A stretch of 32,000 bases of DNA from Candidatus Electronema halotolerans (GTDB lineage: Bacteria > Desulfobacterota > Desulfobulbia > Desulfobulbales > Desulfobulbaceae), in contig OW818675.1 of NCBI GenBank assembly GCA_942493095.1, forward strand, positions 1,830,001 through 1,862,000, written 5' to 3'. The notes under the pieces were generated by a model that saw nothing but the letters and a program-made list of their open reading frames with translations, did no database searches and was not told where the DNA came from. Positions 9,845 to 26,059 of this stretch are shown here, one piece after another. The position numbers and the translations under genes were made by a program. Positions within the stretch are counted from its first letter, which is position 1. Every line of letters begins with the position of its first letter.

Positions 9845-12487
9845 TCATTCACCGTTCACCATTGCCCCTTCCCGCACCAGCCTGCCGATGACAGTATAAT
9901 CCGTCTTGCCGCTGCCGAGAAGCGGGATCGCCTCCACCTGCTGCACCAGCCGGATATTATGCAGCGGCGACAGCCCGGCAGCACGGATGGCCTGATTGGC
10001 CTCCTGCCGGTCCGTGGCCAAAGTGGTCAGCAGCACCAGCTCCGGGTGCTGCTCGTCGCCGCTCGCAGCCACGGCCAGCACCGGCCCCTCGCCTGCCGGA
10101 TAATAGCTCTCCAAGGCCTGCTCAATTGCGGGCAGAGAAATCATCTCGCCGCCAATCTTGACAAAACGCTTCAGCCGCCCGGCAAAGACCAGCACCCCTT
10201 CCCACTCAAACATCAGGTCGCCGGTGTCGTACCACAACTCGCCGTCAAACTCAACAAAAGGCGACTTGGCCTCGCCAATATAGCCGCTGAACACATTTGG
10301 CCCGCGCACCAAGAGCCGCCCGTTCCTGCCCGGCGCAACAGGCTCGCCTGTCTCCGGGTCAAGGAGGATGCGCTGCATCGAGGGCAGCAGCTTGCCAACC
10401 GTGCCCAGCCGGGGATTGCTGAGGGAGTTGATTGCAATCATTGGTGAGCACTCGGTCACGCCGTAGCCTTCGCAAAGCACGGTCTGCGGGCATTTCTCCT
10501 TCAAGGCGGCAAAGACGTGGTCCGGGCATTTCTCGGCCCCGCTGCCGATCAGGCGCAGGGTGCGCAGCTGCTCCGGCTTGGCCGTGCGCAGCATTCCCTG
10601 CAAAAAAGTGGGCGTGGTGATCAGCACGGTTGTCCTGTAGGCGGCGGTCATCCGGGCCAGCATGGCTCCTTCGGTCGGATTGGGCCAATAAACAGTGCGC
10701 AGCCCGGTGCAGAGGGGCATGATCACTGTGCCCGCCAGACCAAGCGAATGAAAAATCGGCAGGATGCCAAGCAGACGGTCGTTGGAGGACAGGGACAGCA
10801 CTTGGGCGAAATCGCGCAAGTTGGCGAGAAAGTTGGCATGAGTAAGCGGCACGGCCTTGGGCCGCGCTTCTGAGCCGGAAGTAAAAAGGATGGCCGCGTT
10901 CTTGGCAATCTTGGCGTGACGGAGCTGGCTCCAAGACAATTGACTCTTGAGCAGAGCCGCGAGTTTCTGTCCCGCGCTGATGCCAGCCGCGATTTCTTCC
11001 AGATAAAGCCACGTCACCCCGACCTGGTCCAGCGCAAGTCCCTGTCCGGCCAGCCGCTCAGTCAGGGCTTTGGCAGTGATCACATTCTTGGCCCCGACCA
11101 CGCCGAGCGAGTGCTGCATATTGGCAATGCCGCTAGTCCAGTTGACCAAGACCGGTTCCTTGCCGCTGAAAACCACGGTCAGCCACGCCACTGCCGCTGC
11201 CACAGAGCTGGGCAGCATGATGCCGACGCGCTGCTCAGGCAGTTTCTCGATTTCCGGCAGCAGGGCGAAAATTGCCATGACGAGCTGCCGCCACGTCCTG
11301 TCGCCCCTGAGCTGGTCAGAAAGAATGACCTGATCAGGATTTTTTCGGGCCTGATCAAGGAACAGCTCGGCAAGAGTATTCCCCTCTGGCATGGTCAGCT
11401 TCCGCTCTTCGACCTGCGCAAACCAGCCTGCCGAAACCGGCTTCAGCTCCGCGCCTGCCAAGGTTGGCATGATGCCGCCCGCCGCCAGGATGCAGTCCGC
11501 AACTGTGCGCAGAGTCTCCAGATTGTCGGCGGAAACCCCGAATTCCTGTTGAAGCCACGCTCCAAACTCAGCCAAGACAATGCTGTCCAAACCAAGATCA
11601 GCGGCCAGACTGTCGCTTTCCTCAATATCCTCTGTTCCGGCCAGCTCTTGCAGCTTGGCCATGACTAACGTGCGGATTGACTCAGGAATCTTGCTCGTGT
11701 CCTTGTCGCTGAATTCCGGCTGGGTCTCGTCGTGATAAATCGGGGCACTGCCCTGCCACCACCAGAGCGGCACCTCGCTGTGGCGGTCAGGATGCTGGTT
11801 GTAAAAATCCTCCAGCCAGCGGTTGATCACCTGCTTGCCTGCGTTGCGGGGCGGAAAATCTGCTGGCTCCTCAACAAATTCCAGCTCAACCCGGCGGCGC
11901 GGCAGAAAAAAAATGCCGTTGGCCAGCACCGCCAGCAGCACCTTGCTGACATCCTTGAGCAGCGAGGGAATGCCTCGCGCCCGGCTGTAGCGGCTGCCCC
12001 AGAGGCCCCGCAGGCGGACCAGCACAATCCGGGCCTCCGGCACCGCATGAATGATCGTGGCTGCGCCGCTGTTGCCGCCGAGCAGCTCCAGATTGCCACG
12101 GCTTATTCGGCCTGATGGATAGAGCAGGATGCTGTCACCCTGCTTGAGCGCGGCAATGATTTCCTCAATGCCGACAATGACCTGATCTCGGACCTGCTGG
12201 CCGCTGGTGCTGAGGTCGGGAATGCGAATCGCCCGCAGCTGGTCCATCAGCCAGCGGAAGAGCGGCTGCGCAGTCTGTTTTTCGTCAGCCAGCGGACGCG
12301 GGGCAAAGGCAGGATAAATCAGGCTCATAATGATTATCGGGTCAATCAGAGCTTGATGATTGGGCAGAAAAAGCACTGGCCGATGGTCGTTGCGGCGGCT
12401 TTTCTTGATCTCCCGCAGGCCAGTGACACGGAGGCGGTAGCGGAGGCGGAGAAGCAGGGCAAAAAGATGCGAGAGCAGCGTTTTCAT
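9845..12487 (-). CDS. tri-domain lysophospholipid acyltransferase (PlsC-type) / acyl carrier domain / acyl-AMP-forming ligase (Aas-like)
   Basis: 880 aa. The N-terminus has the HX4D acyltransferase box (LPNHQALIDPIII) and PSGRISRG. The middle has a phosphopantetheine site (LAADLGLDSIVLAEF). The C-terminal half has adenylation motifs (ILFTSGSEARPKAV, EGYGVTE, YDTGDL, GRLKRFVKIGGEMIS). Confidence 0.85.
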   Translation of the reverse strand: MKTLLSHLFALLLRLRYRLRVTGLREIKKSRRNDHRPVLFLPNHQALIDPIIIMSLIYPAFAPRPLADEKQTAQPLFRWLMDQLRAIRIPDLSTSGQQVRDQVIVGIEEIIAALKQGDSILLYPSGRISRGNLELLGGNSGAATIIHAVPEARIVLVRLRGLWGSRYSRARGIPSLLKDVSKVLLAVLANGIFFLPRRRVELEFVEEPADFPPRNAGKQVINRWLEDFYNQHPDRHSEVPLWWWQGSAPIYHDETQPEFSDKDTSKIPESIRTLVMAKLQELAGTEDIEESDSLAADLGLDSIVLAEFGAWLQQEFGVSADNLETLRTVADCILAAGGIMPTLAGAELKPVSAGWFAQVEERKLTMPEGNTLAELFLDQARKNPDQVILSDQLRGDRTWRQLVMAIFALLPEIEKLPEQRVGIMLPSSVAAAVAWLTVVFSGKEPVLVNWTSGIANMQHSLGVVGAKNVITAKALTERLAGQGLALDQVGVTWLYLEEIAAGISAGQKLAALLKSQLSWSQLRHAKIAKNAAILFTSGSEARPKAVPLTHANFLANLRDFAQVLSLSSNDRLLGILPIFHSLGLAGTVIMPLCTGLRTVYWPNPTEGAMLARMTAAYRTTVLITTPTFLQGMLRTAKPEQLRTLRLIGSGAEKCPDHVFAALKEKCPQTVLCEGYGVTECSPMIAINSLSNPRLGTVGKLLPSMQRILLDPETGEPVAPGRNGRLLVRGPNVFSGYIGEAKSPFVEFDGELWYDTGDLMFEWEGVLVFAGRLKRFVKIGGEMISLPAIEQALESYYPAGEGPVLAVAASGDEQHPELVLLTTLATDRQEANQAIRAAGLSPLHNIRLVQQVEAIPLLGSGKTDYTVIGRLVREGAMVNGE

Positions 12488-12590
12488 AGGAAAAATTGGA
12501 CAGATTTTAAATTACAATTTATCGACCTGCTTATCTGTCCTATTCTGCCCCGGAATCGCAAAAAACGCGAGCTTTTCTCAAAAGGGGCAA

Positions 12591-13213
12591 TTATTCTTTC
12601 CGTCCAGGCCGACCTTGCTTTTTATTTGACAGGCGAATTCCCAGTTTCTTTTCGATCTCTTCCTGAAATAGATTGCTGCCGGTCAACTGCCCTCTTTGCA
12701 ATGCTTCCCGTATCAGCTTGATTTCATATTCCTTATACGCTGTTTGCCGTTCCTGTTCAGCATCTCCTAATGAGAGATAAAACGGCGGTAGATCAACAAC
12801 TGCATCTTTTCAGATACTCCTTGGTGGATATTATGCTGGATTTATAGTGTCCTTTCCACAAGCTGCCTGAACGGCCCTCCATTTTGTTGACATATCTCGT
12901 CTGCTGCCCAGCAACTCGCTTCATCAGGAGCGCAAGTGATTCTGGATTCCCGCTTTAGTCAACGATGAGGTGGACATGGTTGGTCATCAGGCAGTTTATC
13001 CGCCACACGTAGGGTCGATTCATGAATCGACCCTACGTGTGGCTCCGGCTATATTTTGCAGCCGAACTCCTGTTAAAAGGCAGCAAGGTTTTCTCGGTAA
13101 TAATTATAATCGTCATCGGAAGTGAAAACAGTTTGACGATTATGTCCTCGCTGAACAATGTGGTGAGGAGTGTATGGAAGTATCATTCCGGCTGATCGAG
13201 GCCTTTTTGTCAT
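12591..13213 (-). pseudogene. decayed IS200/IS605-superfamily Y1 (HUH) transposase, REP-associated (RAYT-like)
   Basis: My minus-strand translation has three pieces. (1) 13213->: MTKRPRSAGMILPYTPHHIVQRGHNRQTVFTSDDDYNYYRENLAAF*QEFGCKI*. (2) After the 42-bp palindrome: RINCLMTNHVHLIVD*SGNPESLALLMKRVAGQQTRYVNKMEGRSGSLWKGHYKSSIISTKEYLKRCSC*. (3) After a frame change: VVDLPPFYLSLGDAEQERQTAYKEYEIKLIREALQRGQLTGSNLFQEEIEKKLGIRLSNKKQGRPGRKE* (stop at 12591-12593). The HUH box (HVHL) and the Y-motif (GHYKS) are recognisable. The gene carries several in-frame stops, an internal deletion and an insertion. Confidence 0.7.
13002..13043. repeat. 42-bp perfect palindrome (REP-like, GTAG-containing) inserted in the RAYT pseudogene
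   Basis: GCCACACGTAGGGTCGATTCA|TGAATCGACCCTACGTGTGGC, perfectly self-complementary with no loop. It lies between the FGCKI and INCLMTNHVHL segments, which are adjacent in intact family members. Confidence 0.9.
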
Positions 13214-13277
13214 CACGGTTATATCAAAATTCCGGTTTTCGTTATTTCTTCAAGAAAGCCGCTTTTACAAGAAGCAT

Positions 13278-13327
13278 CAAAAGGGGACAGATTTATTTTT
13301 TTAAAAAAATAAATCTGTCCCCTTTTG
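13278..13327. repeat. 50-bp perfect palindrome (REP/MITE-like; could act as a bidirectional terminator)
   Basis: CAAAAGGGGACAGATTTATTTTTTT|AAAAAAATAAATCTGTCCCCTTTTG. The GGGGACAG...CTGTCCCC stem is flanked by A4/T4. It makes the two overlapping track ORFs encode the mirror peptide KRGQIYFFKKINLSPF. Confidence 0.9.
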
Positions 13328-13510
13328 CTTATCAAGGTCAAGCAGAAGGTTTCCGGCTGCTTCCGAACACTTGAGGGAGCAGAACGATTCGCCTGTATCC
13401 GGGGATATATCTCCACGGTCCGTAAAAATTCAAGAAACATTTTTGAAGCGATCAAAGATGCTTTCCTTGGAAGTCCTTTTATCCCCGATGCCGCAGTATA
13501 AAAAACGAGT

Positions 13511-13548
13511 AAGGCCGTCTTCAGCACTTCTGAAAACGGCCTTTTTTG
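13511..13548. terminator. intrinsic terminator hairpin downstream of the Rhs/52-aa ORF unit
   Basis: AAGGCCGTCTTCAG ... CTGAAAACGGCCTT forms a 14-bp stem with 1 mismatch. TTTTTTG follows on the + strand, and ACTCGTTTTTT follows on the - strand. It lies about 110 nt beyond the 52-aa ORF stop. Confidence 0.45.
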
Positions 13549-13660
13549 TCAGGCTGAGTAGTTACTATTTCTCCTCCTCAAAAGTCCCCTTTTGCCTTGA
13601 AAACTGTTGAGATTTAGTAATTTTTTTTGCCGTTTTCGTCATTCAAGCAAACCTATTTAG

Positions 13661-13819
13661 CTATCTCAAATAATTACTAACAAGAAAAAAAAGTAAAAGA
13701 AAAAAACTTGCAAGCCCACCTTTTAGCAAATAGCTTTCTATTCCGACAACGTTGCTAATACGTTGAATACCAAACCCCATAACAATACAATATAAAGTAA
13801 ATGTAAACAAAAATCTCAT
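13661..13819 (-). CDS. 52-aa two-TM protein, candidate immunity protein for the Rhs C-terminal toxin
   Basis: Not in the ORF track (under 60 aa). My translation is MRFLFTFTLYCIVMGFGIQRISNVVGIESYLLKGGLASFFLLLFFLVSNYLR*. ATG at 13819-13817, 28 nt after the Rhs stop; TAG at 13663-13661. Two hydrophobic helices, very AT-rich. The SD is weak. Confidence 0.4.
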   Translation of the reverse strand: MRFLFTFTLYCIVMGFGIQRISNVVGIESYLLKGGLASFFLLLFFLVSNYLR

Positions 13820-13847
13820 AGAAGTCACTTGCTATAAATTTCCCACT

Positions 13848-16800
13848 TCAATTACCATCACAAGGTGATGTTTGCTTCCATTCACCATTAATTGACTGTT
13901 CAGTAGCTCCCCCTAAAACTCCCCCCAATACAGCTGCTCCTATTGTTGTTGATACACTCCCGCCAATCAGTATAGCAGACGGATCACCTGTGACTGCTCC
14001 TACTACTGCCCCAGTAACGGCCCCCACTACTGCTCCACCTGCCGCTGCACCGATAATGTTTTCAGCATGGAATCCATTGCCTTGGATTGCTGAAATTACT
14101 TGAGAACCTAATCCGTATGATGCGCCACCAAGTCCCCCAATAACGGCCCCCGCGCCAGTGGCTGCCCAACTCCATAGCTTTCCCTCAGGATCAACCAACC
14201 CCACCGGATCCCCCACCACATACCCATACAAATCCACATCCCCGCCCGCAAAGAAGATCGGGTCTTTAGCAACCCAACGCCCAATTGCCGGGTCGTAATC
14301 CCGGAAACCGAATTTGACCAGCCCGGTATCCCGGTCATGCAGGCCGCCTGCAAAGCCGAAGGGCACGGCCAAGGCGGGATTGCTGTCGGAAAGAATCGTG
14401 CCAAAGGAATCATAGCTGATTTCTTTGACCACATTGCCGGTCGCATCGGCAACAGTGCGCAGCGAGCCGACCTGATCATAGCCCAGATAATAGGTCGCGC
14501 CGCTGGCGGTCATGGCTGCGGGCATTCTGCCGTCCGCATACTCAAAGCGCATCAGCAGGTTGTCGCTGCCGTCATAGACTGCCATGAGTTTGGTCAGGCC
14601 AAGCCAGAGATATTTTTCCACAATCGTGCCGTTGACCTTCTTGGCAATCCTGCGGCCCAGCGGGTCGTGGAGGTATTCAATGCTCTTTCCGTCCGGCAAG
14701 GTGACTTGCAGCAGCTCGCCGCGAGAGGAATAATTGTAGGCAGTTACCTCAGCACCTTGGGTCTTCTTGGTCAAGAAGCCGTCTTTGTCAAACTCGTAGC
14801 TCACATCGCCTGCGGAGAGCAGATGATCTTCCTCCGAATAGCTATAATCCCGGCCAGATACACCCTTGAGGCTGTTCATTTCATGTGTGCGGCTGCCGTT
14901 CAGCCCGTACTGATACTCTTCCACAAGAATGCCGCCTTTTTTCACGGTCAGCAGCCTGCCCATGTCGTCATACGTGTAGGCATAGTCAACCGCGCTGCCG
15001 TTCACGGTCTCGGTCTTGCTCAGTATCCTGCCGTTTTTATTCCGAGTCACCGACCAGCCATTGACAGGCTGGGCATTGACCGTCGAGTTTTCCGCAGTCA
15101 GTTCGCCATAGCCGTTAAAGGTGCGGCTGCGGTTCAGGGCATTGCCGCTGACCTGCTCCGGCAAACCATTGGCCGCATTTCTGCTTATGGAATAAACACC
15201 GGAACTGATCAGCAGGCCGTCGTCATCATAGCTGAGATTTTCCGTGCTTCCGGCATACGTGATTGCGGAAAGATTGAAATCGTTATTATACGAGAACGTC
15301 AGCGTCTGATTGAGCGTGCCGCTTTTGCTTTCCGAGGTGAGCAAACTGCCGTCATAGCTGTAGGAAATGCTTTCACCGCCTTTGCTGATCGAACCAACCT
15401 TGGAGCTGCAAAGGTACGTATAATCAATATTGCCTTCAGGAGTCTGCGTCTGAGTCAGCAGATTGTCGGTGTAGATATTGCTGATCTGCGCGCCTGACGG
15501 GAAATCCGTTCGCTTCAGCCGCCTGTCCTTGTCATAAACATAGCTGTACGAGCCGCTGATCGGTGTTTGGTAAGCGTTCTGCCTGTTGACCTTGTTGTAG
15601 GCAAACAGATGGTTTGTCGCTGATGGATTGGTCAGCGCGGTCATGTTGCCGTTGCTGTCGTAGCTGAACTGCACAGTTGTTGTATCAGGCCGGGTTATTG
15701 CGGTCACTCTGCCGACTGCATCATGGCTGTAGGAGGTGCTGCGGCCTTCCGGGTCAGTCTGCGAGGCAAGAAAGCCCTGCGCGTCATAGCTGAACGCCGC
15801 TGTCCGGGTATCCGTGGTGACCGAGGTCAAACGGCCCTTGCTGTCGTAGGCATAGTTGGTCGGAGAAAGGCCAGGAATTTCCACGCTCGTAGTGAGCAGG
15901 GTCGCCGGATCATACGCAGCAGTCACAGTCCTGCCTTCCGGCGTAGTGACCGTCTTTTCCGCTGTCAGGGTGTTATGAACAAGGGTTGTTATTCTGCCGT
16001 CGCGGGAGACAGTTTCCGTAATCAGGTCAGGTATCTCGTCTGTATTCGTATCCTGATAGGTTTTATCTACTTGGGCGACTTTGGTCAGTCCGGCAGGCGA
16101 CTGCGTGCCTGTGCCATGCGCGACTTTGTACTTGTATTCCGCATCCAAACCGTAGTCTGTCCAGCTTGTCATGCCGCAGGAAAGCTCCCGTGTTTCACTG
16201 AGGCCGTCAGCAGAACGGCTGAACGTGCTTTCATTGCCGCTTGGATCAATTGTGGTGGTGGAAAAGGCACCGGTGGAAGCGGTATTATCCAGATTGGTGG
16301 TGCGGTTGCCCTCGGCAGTGAGGGAGTCGATCTGCACCTCGCCGTTCGCCAGCCGTTGGCGGGAGTATTGCCACTGGCCGCCTTCCTCGTCAAGCACCTC
16401 GACGATTTTGCCGTTGGCATCAAAATGATGTTCAAAACGGTTGCCGTTCGGCTCCGTCTCAACGGTCATCAGGCTGTCAGGGCTGTAGGTGAAATTGTAG
16501 GCACTGCTGTCCGGGTAAACGATCTTGGCAAGCTGCTTTTCCGCATTGATGTGCAGCTCGGTGCGCAGGCCGTCCGGGGAAACAATGGCAGTTGTTGTGC
16601 CGTTTGCATCCCGCTCAATGGTCGTGACATTGCCGAACTGGTCGGTGATGGAAAGCAGGTTGTTGTCGCTATCATAGCCGAATTCCTGTAGGACAAGGCC
16701 ACTGTCTAAATCAATGGTCTTTTTATGCAGACCGGCAGCGGACATGATGTAGCCGAGGCCGTTGGAGTCGGCAAAGGGGATGTCGCCTGCGGCAAGCAGG

Positions 16801-19800
16801 TCTGACTTGAATACAGCGGCGGCAAATTCAACTTTGCGGATGCGGTGGTGATCATACTCAGCCATGAAAATATTGCCAAGCTGATCCACTGCCACTTCAA
16901 TAGGATCATCAAGACTGGCCTCAAGAGCTGGGCCGCCGTCTCCGGCATAGCTCGATGACCCGTTTCCTGCCACTGTAGTAATGATGCCGTTTGGATCAAT
17001 CTTGCGGATACGAGAGTTGTATTCGTCGCAAATAAAGAGATTGCCCGCCTGATCTAGAGCAACATCCGTTGGACTGTTAAGTCGAGCTTCAATTGCCGGA
17101 CCGCCGTCACCGCTGTAGCCTGATGACCCTGTTCCCGCTACAGTGGTGATGACGCCGCTGGAATTAACCTTGCGGATGCGATCATGTACGGGGTCGGCGA
17201 TAAAAAAATTGCCAGCCTGATCGACTATTACTCCGGCTGCCCTGATTTTAGCTTGAACAGCAGGAATGTTGTCACCTGTAGAGCTGCCGCCACCCGCCAC
17301 AGTGTTGATGATGCCATTTGTATCCACCTTGCGGATGCTGTCATTGTAGTATCCAATCACATTGACAATAAAGATATTGCCGATTTCATCCACTGCCACT
17401 TCATAAGGTTCATCAAGCTCGGCATCAATAGCTGGGCCGCCATCACCGCCGGAGCCTTCAGTGCCGTTGCCTGCCACAGTGGTGATAATGCCGTTTGTAT
17501 CCACTTTACGGATGCGGTTGTTTCCGGTATCAGCAATAAAAATGTTGCCGAGCTGATCAACTACTACATCATCTGGGTAAGAAATATTGGCCTCAATGGC
17601 TGGAATGTTGTCACCGTTGTAGCCGGAAGAGCCGGTACCGACCACAGTGGTGATGATGCCGTTTTTATCTACCTTTCTGATACGATGGTTATTTCTATCG
17701 GCAATCAAGATATTGCCAAGCGTATCCACTGCCACATCGTCAGGATAATAAAGTTTGGCCTCGGCAGCCGGAATGTCGTCGCCGTTGTAACCGGAAGAGC
17801 CGGTGCCTGCCAGTGTTGTTATGATACTGGAGTTCTTGTTTTCCAGAATGGAGCCATTTCCTTTGTACAGGTGCGCGGCTCGTCTTCCAAAAACATGATG
17901 ATCAGACAGGCTCCAGCCTTCAGCGATATTACCCGCAGCCTTTCCTGCACCAACCTGAAGTTCAAAACGCTGCCACGAAATAACCTCCTGCCGTGCCCGG
18001 ATGCCGGTAACATCACTCCCGGCCTGCGCAAAGGCATTGGAAAAATTCCCGGCTGTCAAGTAAACAGCTTCATAGACAAAGCCGATAGCTACATCAGCAT
18101 CCACAGTTCCTGCTTCCCGGCCCAGATAATCCAAACCATCCCAAGTAAATTGGGCCTGCTGGTTTGGCAACGGTTCCAAAGTCTGGGTCAGCGTGCGCCC
18201 GGCAAGCTTCACCTCCACAATGATGCTCTTCAGACTGTCCGGCACCGTGTCGCTGCTGGCCGGAACCGTGATCACCTGCTTGTAGTCGTCCACCCGATTA
18301 GAGGCGTAATGCAGGGTCATGCCAGTGCCGGGAATCGGAATATCTTCATGAAAGACCCGTCCCCGTTTTTTGACGTAGGAGTTGATGCAGTCGATGTCAT
18401 CTGGATTTTTACCATCGGTTGTTTCAGCTCCTTCCGCATCAGGCGTACCCTTACCATTCGGCGGGATTGCATCCTCCTTCGGGCCATACGGCCAGTTACA
18501 ATCCCACGGCGTGAAATGGGTGATTGCTGCCCGCCAGAAGGTCTTTCCCGGCGCATAGCGGCTCGCATCTTCCAAGCCGATCACTTCATCAGCAAAGGAA
18601 CCATCACTGTTCAAATCATTCGGCAGGTCGTCTTTGTCTGAATCCAGAGCATCTACAACGCCGTCGCCGTCCACATCCAAGAGCTTGACCACAAGGCCGT
18701 TCTCAGACGGCACCCAGACCCCGCGATCCCGGTCGTAATAGCCCACGGGCACGGCCTCGCCGACTTCAAAGCCGAGGAAGTTGTCCACCCAGACAGTAAC
18801 CGGCTTGTCAAAGCGCACCCGTGCCGCACCATCCACCGAAAGCTCTGAACAGTAGGTGTAGGCGGAATTCGGCGGCAAAACCGCAGGCATGGACTCCTGC
18901 GTCTTGAACTCCGTGGCTCTGGCCGTAATGTTCGGCAATTCCTGAATATCATTGCCCTGCTCATCAACCAGATGGGCCATGTTGTCGCCCTGAAAAACTA
19001 TGGTCGCAGAGCGGCTGCCGAATTCGTCCGTAACCGGCGTGCTTACATGCGTGACCACTGTTGCAGGATTGCCGTCAAAAGTGACTTGCGTGGCCGCTGA
19101 ATCTTCAACCAGCATCTGCACCGTTTCAGCAACAGCAATATCATTCCACGGCACATATATTTGACGATGCGCGGTGATATACCCGGCCCGTTTGTAGGCA
19201 ATGGTCATGGTGCCGCCGCCTTCTGCGGGAAGGGTGAATCTGCCGTCCGCAGCGGTCTTTACAGTGCCGTATTCAGGATGCCCATGCACCGTGACGCGCA
19301 CATCCTCTAACGGCGCATCTTGCAGATCATGCACCATGCCAGTGATCAGCGAAAACCGCTTGGCATCGTATTCATCAATCGTCGCATCGTCCGGCACAAG
19401 GTCTTCATACTGCTCACCAAACGAGCCTTCCGGCTGCGCTTCCGGGCTGTTCGTCACTTGCACTGTCACCTGCGCGCTGACCGTGCCCTTGCCCCCTGAA
19501 CCGGTGATGGTGTAGGTTGTTGTGTTTTCTGGACTAACACTGCGGGAATCATTTGCCGCGACCACACCAATGCCGTTGTCAATGCTGATATTTTCAACGT
19601 TGCGGCTCTGCCAGGACAGCTCGGTGGATTCACCGGCGGCAATGGTCTCCGAGACGGCAGAGATGGTGATTGAAGCAGGCACCACGTCAACTGTGGCAGT
19701 GTCCGAGGCCGTGCCGCCCGCACCAGTGGCGGTGATTGTATAGGTGGTGGTCGCTGTGGGAGAAACGCTTTTTGTGCCGTTCAGATCAACCGTACCAATC

Positions 19801-20261
19801 CCGTTGTCTATGCTGACCGTATCGGCATTTGTACTGGTCCAAGTCAGGGCCGAGCTGTCTCCTTCGACGATGGAGGCCGGATCAGCGGTCAGAGAAACCG
19901 TGGGCGGCTGGAGCACAGTGATTGTGACGCTGTCCGTCACAGCGCCTTTTGCTCCTGTGGCAGTGGCCGTATAGATTGTGGTCGCTGTCGGCTTTACAGA
20001 CATGGAGCCGTTCAGATCAACCGCACCAATGCCGTTGTCAATACTGACTGTTTCCGCGTTCTTGCTGGTCCATGTCAGCGTTGCTGTTCCACCCAATTTG
20101 ATCGCAGCCGGTTCTGCGCTCAAAGACACCTTGGGCGAGGAAGCTGTTCGTATCATCATGAACATGCGCAGCAGGGAGCTGTCCGTCTTGTCAGCCCATG
20201 CTGAGGGCAGCAGGAAACAGCACAACATCGCGGCAAGAGACAGCAGGATTGTTTTCTTCAC
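13848..20261 (-). CDS. secreted teneurin-like YD/Rhs-repeat polymorphic toxin (2137 aa)
   Basis: GTG start with GAGGA upstream. Signal peptide is MKKTILLSLAAMLCCFLLPSAWA. In order: 3 Ig-like repeats, a TTR/carboxypeptidase-regulatory-like module, 6 NHL blades, many YD repeats (YDSKGRL, YDAQGFL, YDSNGNM ...), and an Rhs core (YYLGYDQVGSLR...FGFRDYDPAIGRWVAKDP...LYGYVVGDPVGLVDPEG), followed by a 110-aa tail. Confidence 0.93.
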   Translation of the reverse strand: MKKTILLSLAAMLCCFLLPSAWADKTDSSLLRMFMMIRTASSPKVSLSAEPAAIKLGGTATLTWTSKNAETVSIDNGIGAVDLNGSMSVKPTATTIYTATATGAKGAVTDSVTITVLQPPTVSLTADPASIVEGDSSALTWTSTNADTVSIDNGIGTVDLNGTKSVSPTATTTYTITATGAGGTASDTATVDVVPASITISAVSETIAAGESTELSWQSRNVENISIDNGIGVVAANDSRSVSPENTTTYTITGSGGKGTVSAQVTVQVTNSPEAQPEGSFGEQYEDLVPDDATIDEYDAKRFSLITGMVHDLQDAPLEDVRVTVHGHPEYGTVKTAADGRFTLPAEGGGTMTIAYKRAGYITAHRQIYVPWNDIAVAETVQMLVEDSAATQVTFDGNPATVVTHVSTPVTDEFGSRSATIVFQGDNMAHLVDEQGNDIQELPNITARATEFKTQESMPAVLPPNSAYTYCSELSVDGAARVRFDKPVTVWVDNFLGFEVGEAVPVGYYDRDRGVWVPSENGLVVKLLDVDGDGVVDALDSDKDDLPNDLNSDGSFADEVIGLEDASRYAPGKTFWRAAITHFTPWDCNWPYGPKEDAIPPNGKGTPDAEGAETTDGKNPDDIDCINSYVKKRGRVFHEDIPIPGTGMTLHYASNRVDDYKQVITVPASSDTVPDSLKSIIVEVKLAGRTLTQTLEPLPNQQAQFTWDGLDYLGREAGTVDADVAIGFVYEAVYLTAGNFSNAFAQAGSDVTGIRARQEVISWQRFELQVGAGKAAGNIAEGWSLSDHHVFGRRAAHLYKGNGSILENKNSSIITTLAGTGSSGYNGDDIPAAEAKLYYPDDVAVDTLGNILIADRNNHRIRKVDKNGIITTVVGTGSSGYNGDNIPAIEANISYPDDVVVDQLGNIFIADTGNNRIRKVDTNGIITTVAGNGTEGSGGDGGPAIDAELDEPYEVAVDEIGNIFIVNVIGYYNDSIRKVDTNGIINTVAGGGSSTGDNIPAVQAKIRAAGVIVDQAGNFFIADPVHDRIRKVNSSGVITTVAGTGSSGYSGDGGPAIEARLNSPTDVALDQAGNLFICDEYNSRIRKIDPNGIITTVAGNGSSSYAGDGGPALEASLDDPIEVAVDQLGNIFMAEYDHHRIRKVEFAAAVFKSDLLAAGDIPFADSNGLGYIMSAAGLHKKTIDLDSGLVLQEFGYDSDNNLLSITDQFGNVTTIERDANGTTTAIVSPDGLRTELHINAEKQLAKIVYPDSSAYNFTYSPDSLMTVETEPNGNRFEHHFDANGKIVEVLDEEGGQWQYSRQRLANGEVQIDSLTAEGNRTTNLDNTASTGAFSTTTIDPSGNESTFSRSADGLSETRELSCGMTSWTDYGLDAEYKYKVAHGTGTQSPAGLTKVAQVDKTYQDTNTDEIPDLITETVSRDGRITTLVHNTLTAEKTVTTPEGRTVTAAYDPATLLTTSVEIPGLSPTNYAYDSKGRLTSVTTDTRTAAFSYDAQGFLASQTDPEGRSTSYSHDAVGRVTAITRPDTTTVQFSYDSNGNMTALTNPSATNHLFAYNKVNRQNAYQTPISGSYSYVYDKDRRLKRTDFPSGAQISNIYTDNLLTQTQTPEGNIDYTYLCSSKVGSISKGGESISYSYDGSLLTSESKSGTLNQTLTFSYNNDFNLSAITYAGSTENLSYDDDGLLISSGVYSISRNAANGLPEQVSGNALNRSRTFNGYGELTAENSTVNAQPVNGWSVTRNKNGRILSKTETVNGSAVDYAYTYDDMGRLLTVKKGGILVEEYQYGLNGSRTHEMNSLKGVSGRDYSYSEEDHLLSAGDVSYEFDKDGFLTKKTQGAEVTAYNYSSRGELLQVTLPDGKSIEYLHDPLGRRIAKKVNGTIVEKYLWLGLTKLMAVYDGSDNLLMRFEYADGRMPAAMTASGATYYLGYDQVGSLRTVADATGNVVKEISYDSFGTILSDSNPALAVPFGFAGGLHDRDTGLVKFGFRDYDPAIGRWVAKDPIFFAGGDVDLYGYVVGDPVGLVDPEGKLWSWAATGAGAVIGGLGGASYGLGSQVISAIQGNGFHAENIIGAAAGGAVVGAVTGAVVGAVTGDPSAILIGGSVSTTIGAAVLGGVLGGATEQSINGEWKQTSPCDGN
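13851..14180 (-). other. C-terminal cargo domain: glycine-zipper hydrophobic peptide (residues 2028-2137)
   Basis: KLWSWAATGAGAVIGGLGGASYGLGSQVISAIQGNGFHAENIIGAAAGGAVVGAVTGAVVGAVTGDPSAILIGGSVSTTIGAAVLGGVLGGATEQSINGEWKQTSPCDGN. Codons mostly end in A/T (GGT, GGA, GCA, GTA, ACA, TCA, ATT, TTA), unlike the upstream shell. Confidence 0.8.
16824..17828 (-). repeat. six tandem NHL-type beta-propeller blades (residues ~813-1146)
   Basis: About 55-aa units: IITTLAGTGSSGYNGDDIPAAEAKLYYPDDVAVDTLGNILIADRNNHRIRKVDKNG, then IITTVVGTGSSGYNGDN...RIRKVDTNG, and so on through ...IFMAEYDHHRIRKVEF. The DNA copies are diverged. Confidence 0.85.
19449..20135 (-). repeat. three tandem ~76-aa Ig-like repeats (residues ~43-271)
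   Basis: PKVSLSAEPAAIKLGGTATLTWTSKNAETVSIDNGIGAVDLNGSMSVKPTATTIYTATATG... / PTVSLTADPASIVEGDSSALTWTSTNADTVSIDNGIGTVDLNGTKSVSPTATTTYTITATG... / ITISAVSETIAAGESTELSWQSRNVENISIDNGIGVV...TTTYTITGSG... Confidence 0.85.
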
Positions 20262-20300
20262 AAGAGTCCTCAGCTATTATCTGAAAAATGAACAAAAAAG

Positions 20301-24660: not shown

Positions 24661-25547
24661 GTGATGGTGAACTGTGAGTGATCAATTAAACAAAAGATTA
24701 TTATTATAATCTTGAATGAACCTCCAGACAGATGCAGTTAAATTTTCGATGCTTCTCGAAAATGAAATGGTCTTTCTGACAAGTGCAGATAATCTTTGTC
24801 TGAATGTCAAATTGAGCCTTTCGATATGACTTGTTTTTCCGCTTCCTTTGCTGACAATTCTATGCCTTTCAGCTGGAAACACGCTCGAATAAGCGGCGAG
24901 TCCATCCGTAAAAAATATTCCGTTCTTTTTGCAATCCTCAGAAAGGGAGTCCCACAAGGCGGCTGCTCCTGCATTATCTCTTTTTCCAACATGATATCCG
25001 ACAATAAGCTTTGTTCTTCTCTCGACAGCAAGCCATATCCAAATATCATTTTTCTTGTCACCAACGAAAGTCCACATTTCATCGGCTTCGATGAAGATTT
25101 TTCCGTTGCGGGACATATTGAAAGCCTCTTTTTTGACTTCATTTCGTTTTTTTTTAACATATTCCTGAAGCCATCTTTTTGAGATGGAAACGGCTCTCGC
25201 AATCCCAGCCAAGGAGATTCTTTCAACAAGAAGCTTATCAACTATGCGCCATTCAGCATCAGATATTGTTTTGTTCTGAGGATTCTCAACGAATTGACGT
25301 GAGCAGTCCTTACATAAAAATTTCTTTTTCCCATTCGCATTGGAGCCATTTTTCACAATGACTGATGAACCACATCTTGGGCATTGCACAGCTTTCTTCT
25401 CCATGTTTGTTTTTTTCATAATGACGGCTTGACATGCGCATCCGACGAAGAGCCGATGGGACAGAGAGCATCCCTTGCCGCCAGTATATTATATTTTTCA
25501 GCAATTTCAACATATTTTCAACCTATCACTCACGATTCACCATTACC
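24660..25547 (-). mobile_element. IS1-family insertion sequence (~888 bp)
   Basis: Terminal inverted repeats are GGTGATGGTGAACTGTGAGTGAT (24660-24682) and the reverse complement of 25525-25547, GGTAATGGTGAATCGTGAGTGAT (20/23 identical, IS1-like GGTGATG...TGAT ends). Flanked by direct repeats, with a single transposase ORF. The interior is AT-richer than the flanks. Confidence 0.88.
24682..25419 (-). CDS. IS1-family transposase (fused InsAB-type, no frameshift)
   Basis: N-terminal zinc finger CPRCGS...CKDCSRQF, an HTH (LAGIARAVSISKRW), and a DDE region ADEMWTFVGDKKNDIWIWLAVERR...FFTDGLAAYSSV...IERLNLTFRQRLSALVRKTISFSRS, collinear with E. coli InsB motifs. Confidence 0.9.
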   Translation of the reverse strand: MKKTNMEKKAVQCPRCGSSVIVKNGSNANGKKKFLCKDCSRQFVENPQNKTISDAEWRIVDKLLVERISLAGIARAVSISKRWLQEYVKKKRNEVKKEAFNMSRNGKIFIEADEMWTFVGDKKNDIWIWLAVERRTKLIVGYHVGKRDNAGAAALWDSLSEDCKKNGIFFTDGLAAYSSVFPAERHRIVSKGSGKTSHIERLNLTFRQRLSALVRKTISFSRSIENLTASVWRFIQDYNNNLLFN

Positions 25548-25556
25548 ACTGGCTGG
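25548..25556. repeat. target-site duplication, copy 2 (ACTGGCTGG)
   Basis: Identical to 24652-24660. Confidence 0.8.
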
Positions 25557-26059
25557 GCCGGATGCTGGCAGGCGGCGAAGACCCGCTCTACATTGCCCGC
25601 CGCCTGATCCGCTTTGCCAGTGAGGACGTGGGCATCAGCGACCCCAGAGCCTTGGAGGTGGCCCTGAGCTGCCGTCAAGCCTGTCACCTGCTCGGTTCAC
25701 CGGAAGGCGAGCTGGCTCTGTATCAGGCCGCAGTGTATCTTGCCACTGCGCCCAAGAGCAATGCCCTCTATGTCACGGAAAAGACTGTGAAGGAGGAAAT
25801 CCGGCGGAGCGGCTCGCTGCCAGTGCCGCTCCATCTCCGCAATGCGCCGACCAAGCTGATGCGGGACTGCGGCTATGGCAGAGGCTACGAGTATGCGCAC
25901 GATCAGGCGGATGCGCTGACTGCGCAGGAGCATCTGCCAGAGGAGCTGGCCGGGAAAAGGTTTTACCAGCCTTCTGAGCGCGGCTATGAGGCGGTGGTTC
26001 GGGAGCGGCTCCTCAAATGGCGGGAGATTCTCCGGCAGCGGCGCACAAAAAAGCAGTGA
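25548..26059 (+). pseudogene. rarA: rarA/mgsA, 3' fragment
   Basis: WLGRMLAGGEDPLYIARRLIRFASEDVGISDPRAL...APKSNALY...VPLHLRNAPTKLMRDCGYGRGYEYAHD, the conserved RarA C-terminal domain. It resumes exactly at the IS end. Confidence 0.88.

Follow-up and report, generated by a model that had tools for sequence, protein, structure and literature searches.

The teneurin fold class was reported in 2018 to be widespread in bacteria (Jackson et al., PMC5851990), and a bacterial teneurin-like protein (TLP) from Bacillus inaquosorum CW14, termed BiTLP, has since been characterised by cryo-electron microscopy (PDB entries 9pt5 and 9ifo; Raoelijaona et al., Nat Commun 2026, PMC13018210). The latter study described two autocleavages, toxic C-terminal domains (CTDs), matching immunity proteins encoded downstream, and a domain named TIP ('teneurin insertion protein'), defined as an insertion between the transthyretin-like (TTR) and FN-plug domains of bacterial TLPs. 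It counted 139 positive genomes in six phyla, left a signalling role open and noted an enrichment of TLPs in socially complex bacteria; Desulfobulbaceae (Desulfoprunum, Desulfurivibrio) appear in its text and supplementary files, and Electrothrix and Electronema do not appear in the accessible parts of either (PMC13018210). Here we describe a gene at positions 13848–20261 of a 32,000-nucleotide stretch of the genome of Candidatus Electronema halotolerans (assembly GCA_942493095.1, contig OW818675.1, positions 1,830,001 to 1,862,000; the whole stretch is called 'the window' below) and conclude, with near certainty, that its product is a bacterial TLP. The host is a cable bacterium, which forms multicellular, electrically conducting filaments. 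No literature linking cable bacteria with teneurin or RHS proteins was found in the library that was searched.

The gene is a single intact open reading frame (ORF) on the minus strand, with a GTG start and 2137 codons followed by a stop, and its product matches 'hypothetical protein GCAAIG_08125' (Candidatus Electronema halotolerans, 3.2-Mb contig) at 100% identity. Profile searches placed TTR_TEN1-4 at residues 298–383 (68 bits against a Pfam gathering cut-off of 27) and TEN_YD-shell at residues 1171–2000 (142 bits against 50), and scored TEN_NHL at 131 bits against 27. The NHL and RHS_repeat models of Pfam were likewise above their gathering scores, and the NCBIfam model Rhs_assc_core matched residues 1950–2027. 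The FN-plug_TEN1-4 model (PF24329) alone fell below threshold (E = 9e-4; 19.9 bits against 27.8); in alignments to solved teneurins the FN-plug was nonetheless aligned. The best matches among PDB sequences were the bacterial 'Teneurin-like protein' chains 9pt5_A and 9ifo_A (BiTLP), which are collinear with residues 65–2030 at E = 3e-295, and the next-ranked sequences were all metazoan teneurins, with E values from 6e-93 (teneurin-2) to 2e-52 and alignments running from about residue 631, in the FN-plug, to about residue 2000.

Structural comparison gave the same ranking. An AlphaFold2 (AF2) model of residues 290–1170 had a mean confidence (pLDDT) of 74, with values above 90 in the NHL propeller, about 70–87 in the TTR and TIP domains and 45–74 in the FN-plug, as expected for a plug modelled without its shell. 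When used as a Foldseek query, this model retrieved 9ifo first (8e-44), then twelve teneurin entries (2e-37 to 2e-25) and then generic NHL propellers; a generic PAAR-Rhs or TcC cocoon was not the best match. The FN-plug, NHL propeller and YD shell are present on one chain in that order, and are preceded by the TTR domain and then by TIP (residues 384–627 align to BiTLP 481–723; the identity of TIP to its relatives is 56–89%). TIP lies between TTR and FN-plug in 96% of TLPs (PMC13018210). These domain matches to the teneurin architecture are far beyond chance.

A preliminary description, made from the DNA letters without database searches, had read the protein as a signal peptide and three Ig-like repeats followed by TTR, plug, six-bladed NHL, YD shell, RHS core and C-terminal toxin, and had equated the latter order with the teneurin superfold. 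Because profile and structure searches recover teneurin modules and rank teneurins at the top, that architecture stands. The Ig-like repeats align with one another, six NHL repeats are counted beside the above-threshold TEN_NHL match, and the signal peptide is a reading of the sequence.

The presence of a YD shell and RHS core would also fit an ordinary type VI secretion system (T6SS) Rhs effector or a Tc-toxin BC-type cocoon with a merely teneurin-looking N-terminal region, as both modules are common to those proteins and the PDB matches do include T6SS Rhs proteins, Tse5, Tse15 and TcdB2-TccC3. Those matches, however, trail BiTLP and the teneurins by 50–250 orders of magnitude and are confined to shell and core; TcdB2-TccC3 matches the RHS core only (E ~ 1e-8), and the Electronema shell is a single chain. 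The protein also carries a Sec signal peptide, no PAAR, VgrG-binding, SpvB or TcB/TcdB domains were found in it by Pfam and NCBIfam searches, and no T6SS, Tc/TcA or two-partner secretion genes were found in the 32-kb window. A T6SS Rhs or Tc toxin identity is refuted by the Pfam profiles and by the PDB sequence and Foldseek rankings, and we give it hardly any credence.

The features of the locus, in window coordinates and with residue numbers of the TLP, are as follows.

13848–20261, minus strand: complete TLP gene; GTG start, 2137 residues plus stop.
20267–20271, minus strand: Shine-Dalgarno sequence GAGGA, 5 nt upstream of the GTG, as read from the sequence.
20193–20261, minus strand: Sec signal peptide, residues 1–23 (MKK, hydrophobic core, then AWA before the cut and D after it), of signal peptidase I type, likewise a reading by eye.
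19452–20132, minus strand: three tandem Ig-like repeats of about 75 residues each (residues 44–270), from self-alignment.
19113–19370, minus strand: TTR domain, residues 298–383 (PF25020 TTR_TEN1-4, E = 5e-19, above cut-off).
18486–19112, minus strand: TIP domain, residues 384–592; aligns to BiTLP upstream of its FN-plug and holds the acidic DVDGDGVVDALDSDKDD loop.
18381–18485, minus strand: variable acidic linker, residues 593–627, poorly conserved, with Cys625 (18387–18389), which aligns with BiTLP C719.
18378–18383, minus strand: predicted N-terminal autocleavage site between N627 and S628; aligns with G723 and S724 of BiTLP.
17832–18380, minus strand: FN-plug, residues 628–810; alignments to teneurin structures begin at residues 631–636.
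16812–17831, minus strand: six-bladed NHL beta-propeller, residues 811–1150 (TEN_NHL and NHL above cut-off; six repeats; AF2 pLDDT above 90).
14415–16811, minus strand: YD-repeat shell, residues 1151–1949 (TEN_YD-shell, E = 2e-41; RHS_repeat; YD_repeat_2x).
14178–14414, minus strand: RHS-associated core (aspartyl autoprotease), residues 1950–2028 (TIGR03696, E = 2e-19), with R1987, D2000 and D2024 and a predicted cut after K2028.
13851–14177, minus strand: polymorphic CTD (putative toxin), residues 2029–2137, 10.1 kDa; rich in glycine zippers, its only cysteine being Cys2134 of an SPC motif.
13661–13828, minus strand: candidate immunity ORF of 55 residues with two hydrophobic helices; 29.8% GC; starts 19 nt after the TLP stop.
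13511–13543, minus strand: intrinsic terminator-like hairpin with a 14-bp stem and T-run (folding energy −23.1 kcal/mol, z = −4.6).

All peptides quoted in the preliminary description were found where expected: VRVTVHG...WND at residues 321–374, DVDGDGVVDALDSDKDD at 529–545, FHEDIPIPGTGMTLHYASNR at 637–656, FTWDGLDYLGR at 705–715, GWSLSDHHV at 782–790, LYKGNG at 798–803 and DPVGLVDPEG at 2018–2027. Its region of about 420 residues exists (427 residues) but is not a single unit, as it consists of TIP (residues 384–592) and the FN-plug (residues 628–810), split by a variable linker with a self-cleavage site; the DVDGDG...DSDKDD motif sits in TIP, and FHEDIPIPG, FTWDGLDYLGR and GWSLSDHH sit in the FN-plug. 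The NHL blades start at residues 813, 869, 925, 984, 1037 and 1093 by self-alignment, and the TTR domain is all-beta in the AF2 model (pLDDT about 80). The Ig-like repeats, which have a weak Pfam match (Ig_ADGRF3, E = 1.7e-4), are a variable adhesin-type N-terminal module; among relatives, the module that precedes the TTR domain is 108 to 1604 residues long. No good lipobox is apparent in the signal peptide, and only 7 of 108 relatives, some Electrothrix among them, have one in place of the signal peptidase I type. Three long ORFs (322–485 residues) lie antisense to the TLP gene on the plus strand (14337–15497, 15723–16691 and 17184–18641); a Pfam search with them gave no match, and they are probably spurious, being artefacts of the repeat-rich coding strand.

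Conservation was scored in two sets, the 120 best homologues, aligned with MAFFT, and 149 more distant representatives. Residues R1987, D2000, D2024 and K2028 align to the catalytic R2103, D2116 and D2140 of BiTLP and to its last ordered residue, L2144, and the arginine and two aspartates of the RHS core, which in TLPs belong to DPxG-type motifs, are kept in 116–119 of the 120 relatives. We predict that an aspartyl autoprotease formed by the RHS core cuts after K2028 and releases the CTD as residues 2029–2137. A second self-cut, in the FN-plug loop between N627 and S628 and with the serine as nucleophile, is also predicted: S628 aligns with BiTLP S724, its column is Ser in 114 of 120 relatives (Cys or Thr in 4), and Ser, Cys or Thr occupies it in all 124 of the 124 distant representatives that have the region.

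In BiTLP, C719 is disulfide-bonded to C2216 of the cargo, a bond that the main text of the 2026 paper describes for BiTLP only and calls surprising (PMC13018210). Residue C625 of the Electronema protein aligns with C719, and its counterpart in the tail is C2134, which stands in an SPC motif 3 residues from the end. Of 120 relatives, 119 have a cysteine in the 15 residues that precede the cleavage serine, as do 121 of 124 distant representatives. At the other end, 113 of 114 CTDs of at least 60 residues contain at least one cysteine, against 48% expected from the cysteine frequency of the protein body, and in the distant set 53 of 55 do so, against an expectation of 46%. Exactly one cysteine is found in 95 of the 114 CTDs; it is preceded by proline in 61 of these 95 and lies at a median of 3 residues from the C-terminus. 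The pair is thus near-universal among the ~170 relatives that could be scored. By analogy with BiTLP, a C625–C2134 disulfide probably ties the CTD to the 63-kDa N-terminal fragment. The bond looks family-wide because the cysteine is kept in CTDs that are otherwise unrelated in sequence, which suggests that the disulfide known from BiTLP is a general feature of TLPs.

The CTD itself is unlike those of its relatives. TLPs end in a short, hypervariable CTD of about 15 kDa, and the Electronema one fits this pattern. We found no similarity between it and the CTDs of 119 other TLPs, including that of an 83%-identical Electrothrix protein; mean identity over the 119 relatives is 0.51–0.71 in the body, from TTR to RHS core, 0.28 in the linker and 0.14 in the CTD. 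Its sole homologue among 5.8 billion proteins is P0121 (49% identity, E = 1e-20 pairwise), an orphan C-terminal fragment that starts inside an RHS core (MPFGFAGGL...) on a 3-kb metagenome contig (L002, positions 1–1204). On that contig P0121 is flanked by small hydrophobic ORFs of 53 residues upstream and 56 residues downstream, in what looks like an orphan toxin/immunity array. A CTD that diverges on a conserved body is, as far as sequence comparison goes, the pattern of polymorphic toxins, a reading we adopt because the CTDs are unrelated among TLPs while the bodies are conserved and the loci are not syntenic. That the CTD plays a toxin role is, in our judgement, very probable.

The same protein could instead serve chiefly in cell-cell adhesion or kin recognition within the multicellular filament, a role nearer to that of animal teneurins, with its glycine-rich C-terminus serving as a membrane or outer-membrane anchor and not as a toxin. 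Both the Ig repeats at the N-terminus and the NHL propeller are modules for interaction, the CTD has weak Pfam matches to glycine-zipper families of outer-membrane lipoproteins, no delivery machinery was found in the window, and cable bacteria are multicellular, which fits the open question of signalling and the enrichment in socially complex bacteria in the 2026 paper (PMC13018210). However, the aspartyl-protease triad of the RHS core and the plug serine are intact here, whereas metazoan teneurins, in which the C-terminus is not released, have lost that protease motif; a hypervariable CTD on a conserved body is the signature of a toxin-immunity arms race; and the CTD of BiTLP is fully enclosed in its shell (PMC13018210) and hence cannot act as an anchor. 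An adhesin without a toxin is in our view quite unlikely.

If the CTD is a toxin, its composition points to the membrane. Of its 109 residues, 26 are Gly, 18 are Ala (40% Gly+Ala) and one is Cys. It has five GxxxGxxxG motifs, among them the run GAVVGAVTGAVVGAVTG, which agree with the extended (G/A/S)xxxGxxxG motif of glycine-zipper toxins; shuffled sequences of the same composition have a mean of 1.25 such motifs, and 1.9% of shuffles reach five. The glycine-zipper C-terminal domains of EsxX, TelE and TspA, and likewise the Rhs toxin Tse5, act by depolarising membranes, and membrane proteins neutralise them (PMC12744356), ionophores of contact-dependent inhibition (CDI) systems have glycine zippers and immunity proteins that are two-helix hairpins (PMC11630599), and the hydrophobic CTD of BiTLP permeabilises E. 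coli only if it is sent to the periplasm (PMC13018210). By analogy with these proteins, we narrowly favour the assignment of the CTD as a membrane-depolarising glycine-zipper domain.

A TLP toxin could also act through its CTD in a manner other than ion-conducting pores, for example by binding a periplasmic or envelope target or as a translocation segment. The CTD has no homology to any proven pore former, it is moderately hydrophobic (GRAVY 0.60, with window-averaged hydrophobicity above threshold only briefly), and the glycine zipper of the T6SS effector Tde1 is reportedly needed for translocation and not for killing (PMC10240207). Against this, at 109 residues and 40% Gly+Ala, with no recognisable catalytic motif, the domain is too small and of too low complexity for most enzymes, and the depolarising toxins EsxX, TelE and TspA are marked by a periodic GxxxG run of the kind seen here, with five glycines in the CTD. 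We consider a non-pore activity to have only a small chance of being correct.

The 55-residue ORF directly downstream of the TLP gene has two hydrophobic segments and a GC content of 29.8%, whereas the window as a whole has 55% and the toxin body 54%. About 120 nt beyond it lies the GC-rich, intrinsic terminator-like hairpin, which none of 200 shuffled sequences matched in stability and which would close a TLP-immunity transcription unit. In two related TLP loci with glycine-zipper CTDs (L003 and L004), a conserved protein (41% identity, E = 8e-44) is encoded directly downstream, and it is read as having two hydrophobic helices. Several of the immunity proteins that the 2026 supplement gives for Desulfobacterota TLPs also look small and hydrophobic (PMC13018210). 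From its position and predicted helices, it is plausible, at about even odds, that the 55-residue ORF is the immunity gene. Downstream of the TLP of Electrothrix AU1_5 (L001, 11405–11990) there is no obvious immunity ORF, and the ~600 nt consist of repeated units in which several ORFs contain the same peptide strings; PIN/PhdYeFM and VapB toxin-antitoxin genes follow this repeat stretch.

Taken together, we propose that the locus encodes a Sec-exported, self-cleaving TLP with an enclosed depolarising toxin and a 55-residue immunity protein, and put the probability of the proposal as a whole at roughly 0.7. Sequence and structure comparison show a signal peptide, the Ig-like repeats, TTR and TIP, and then a YD shell that is plugged by the FN-plug, flanked by the six-bladed NHL propeller and closed by the RHS core. 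Two self-cuts, between N627 and S628 and, by the aspartyl protease R1987/D2000/D2024, after K2028, would follow, as the catalytic residues and the BiTLP structure indicate. After both, the 10-kDa CTD would stay enclosed in the 150-kDa shell, with the C625–C2134 disulfide tethering it to the 63-kDa N-terminal fragment. Once freed at a target cell, the CTD may insert into the cytoplasmic membrane from its periplasmic side, oligomerise and dissipate the membrane potential, steps suggested by composition and analogy, and the producer would be shielded by the 55-residue two-helix membrane protein.

Several observations weigh against this proposal. Concerning the cargo, a Pfam search of the CTD (E ≤ 10) gave sub-threshold glycine-zipper and TraT matches only (Gly-zipper_YMGG, 15 bits against a cut-off of 28.9), and comparison with PDB sequences gave nothing significant (a prion glycine-rich segment at E = 0.37) and no match to a characterised toxin. 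Harmless outer-membrane lipoproteins have glycine-zipper domains too, and the 'OMP-like' CTDs of Desulfobacterota and Paenibacillus are apparently not among the three CTDs found to be toxic in the cytoplasm (PMC13018210). The 55-residue ORF has a poor ribosome-binding site; it has no homologue in the database of 5.8 billion proteins and is not a called gene there, and it is not significantly similar to the two-helix ORF of similar size beside P0121 (E = 0.25). Finally, no outer-membrane export route is visible in the 32-kb window.

An extension of the proposal, which we regard as possible but rather doubtful, is that the toxin is never released alone, as the cysteine pair kept in almost all scorable relatives might suggest. 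In it, a disulfide-linked pair consisting of the 63-kDa Ig-TTR-TIP fragment and the 10-kDa glycine-zipper peptide would be the active species, TIP would be a receptor-binding or translocation module, the 150-kDa shell would be a disposable folding cage, and the toxin would police filament membership. If this is true, a Sec-exported toxin and its membrane immunity protein could police a cable-bacterium filament, with its shared periplasm, and not attack strangers.

TIP is a domain of about 210 residues and, with the RHS core, forms the most conserved part of the protein (mean identity 0.71 over 119 relatives). The 2018 report had already recorded it, with its function unassigned, as a domain kept in Monosiga and Branchiostoma teneurins (PMC5851990), and it is missing from the metazoan teneurins of arthropods and higher chordates. 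Modelled alone with AF2, TIP is a confident all-beta domain (pLDDT 81, pTM 0.78), and a structure search with this model against PDB and BFVD gave no match with E < 0.001. The three top weak PDB matches are GAIN autoproteolysis domains of adhesion GPCRs, namely GPR110 (E = 0.07, probability 0.91), latrophilin-3 and GPR56 (E 0.07–0.6), with scores too weak to serve as more than a lead. The likeness is curious, given that a self-cleavage site follows closely after TIP and that teneurin has latrophilin as its ligand.

The segment comprising TIP and FN-plug also gives a measure of family size. It yields 3817 clusters at 50% identity, 3217 of them at E ≤ 1e-10 and 2213 at E ≤ 1e-30, and species-representative genomes hold at least 192 loci, most of them in Thermodesulfobacteriota. 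The initial characterisation of bacterial members as rare therefore holds per species only and fails in absolute terms (3217 50%-identity clusters, at least 192 loci), and the accompanying statement that they are functionally uncharacterised is outdated, given the reports of 2018 (PMC5851990) and 2026 (PMC13018210). Some TIP-containing TLP loci occur in metagenome-assembled genomes outside the six phyla of the 2026 paper (L027 and L035, Candidatus Scalindua; L050 and L079, Omnitrophota; L062, Nitrospirae; L066, FCB group), where the phylum assignments are putative and binning contamination is possible.

Close relatives of the Electronema protein, at 68–83% identity, are encoded by Electrothrix sp. 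AU1_5, E. gigas, E. communis and Electrothrix sp. AW5. Housekeeping genes surround it in the window, with a pabB-like gene upstream, an acyltransferase/ACP/AMP-ligase fusion downstream, and MFS and ABC transport genes. The fusion (9845–12487, minus strand) is an 880-residue protein with acyltransferase, phosphopantetheine-binding and AMP-binding parts, on the same strand as the toxin locus and downstream of it. In four related loci the neighbours are entirely different, without synteny and without a secretion partner evident from context, which fits an accessory gene. No PADLOC defence model matched.

Downstream of the toxin unit, the stretch 12500–13650 is low in GC (43%) and holds a degraded Y1 transposase of IS200/RAYT type, seen especially at 12799–12993 on the minus strand, which is 38% identical over 65 residues to the intact Y1_Tnp of the related locus L004 (tblastn, E = 6e-8); in L004 the transposase gene has the same relative position, after the TLP-immunity pair. 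Two perfect, REP-like palindromes of 42 and 50 nt lie at 13002–13043 and 13278–13327. A Pfam search of the small ORF fragments at 12.5–13.6 kb gave no match; we take the fragment at 13073–13216 (minus strand) to resemble a RAYT N-terminus and that at 13325–13501 (plus strand) to resemble an IS66 transposase C-terminus. Farther away, an IS1-family transposase (24682–25419, minus strand; InsA zinc ribbon and DDE domain) adjoins a 194-residue ORF (25475–26059, plus strand) that has nothing of the MgsA AAA+ ATPase but its C-terminal domain, and insertion of the IS1-family element may have truncated the MgsA gene.

Compared with known systems, the cargo resembles toxins on other scaffolds. The type VII secretion system (T7SS) toxins EsxX, TelE and TspA and the CDI ionophore CdiA-CTs share with it the (G/A/S)xxxGxxxG motif in a short C-terminal domain and small or polytopic membrane immunity proteins. 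They differ in being carried on LXG/T7SS and CdiA/T5SS (type V secretion system) scaffolds and have no detectable homology to it, so that the likeness is one of motif and logic only. Tse5 (RhsP1, PA2684) of Pseudomonas aeruginosa is likewise a YD/Rhs cocoon that is cut twice and has a small hydrophobic depolarising C-terminal toxin (PMC9637101, PMC10684867, PMC12744356), and its shell and core match the Electronema TLP weakly (8cp6_B). In contrast to the TLP, it relies on T6SS delivery via a PAAR/VgrG module and has no TTR, TIP, FN-plug or NHL, and no sequence similarity between the two CTDs was detected.

The metazoan teneurins (chicken Ten2, 6fb3; mouse Ten3, 8r50; human Ten4, 7bam; fly Ten-m, 8fia) have the same order of FN-plug, NHL, YD shell and RHS core, with TTR upstream. 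Unlike them, the Electronema TLP has no intracellular domain, type II transmembrane helix, Cys-rich region, ABD or Tox-GHH; Pfam and PDB sequence searches of the CTD gave no ABD or Tox-GHH match, and EGF repeats gave no Pfam match, a cleavable signal peptide and Ig-like repeats being present instead. Mammalian teneurins lack the TIP domain and an intact RHS autoprotease, both of which the Electronema TLP has. Metazoan teneurins act in synaptic adhesion, whereas toxin delivery is proposed here, and their C-terminus is uncleaved and leaves the shell, whereas here the cleavage motif is intact.

The closest counterpart is BiTLP, which shares Ig-type repeats, TTR, TIP, FN-plug, NHL, YD shell and RHS core with the Electronema protein, as well as both cleavage sites, the plug cysteine, a short hydrophobic Cys-bearing CTD and, directly downstream, a small gene, which here is the candidate immunity ORF. 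It differs in several respects. The Electronema host is Gram-negative, so that Sec export ends in the periplasm; the CTD sequences are unrelated, with the alignment ending two residues past the cleavage point; the −1 residue is Asn here and Gly in BiTLP at the N-terminal site, and Lys here and Leu in BiTLP at the C-terminal site; and the tether cysteine lies 3 residues from the C-terminus here and 21 in BiTLP. The TLP family is thus already known and structurally solved, and the cable-bacterium TLP adds a member to it, not a new kind. The picture of the protein's nature is unchanged, and the value of this member lies in its cable-bacterium host, cysteine tether, fold-orphan TIP and near-unique cargo. 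Cable bacteria are confirmed to possess an intact teneurin fold of the ancestor type, in keeping with the published trend towards socially complex bacteria. Three points can be tested across the family: the apparent generality of the disulfide; the standing of TIP as the most conserved domain, for which neither solved structures nor predicted viral ones gave a match; and the glycine-zipper cargo of many Desulfobacterota TLPs, followed in both loci examined by a downstream gene that is read as encoding two hydrophobic helices.

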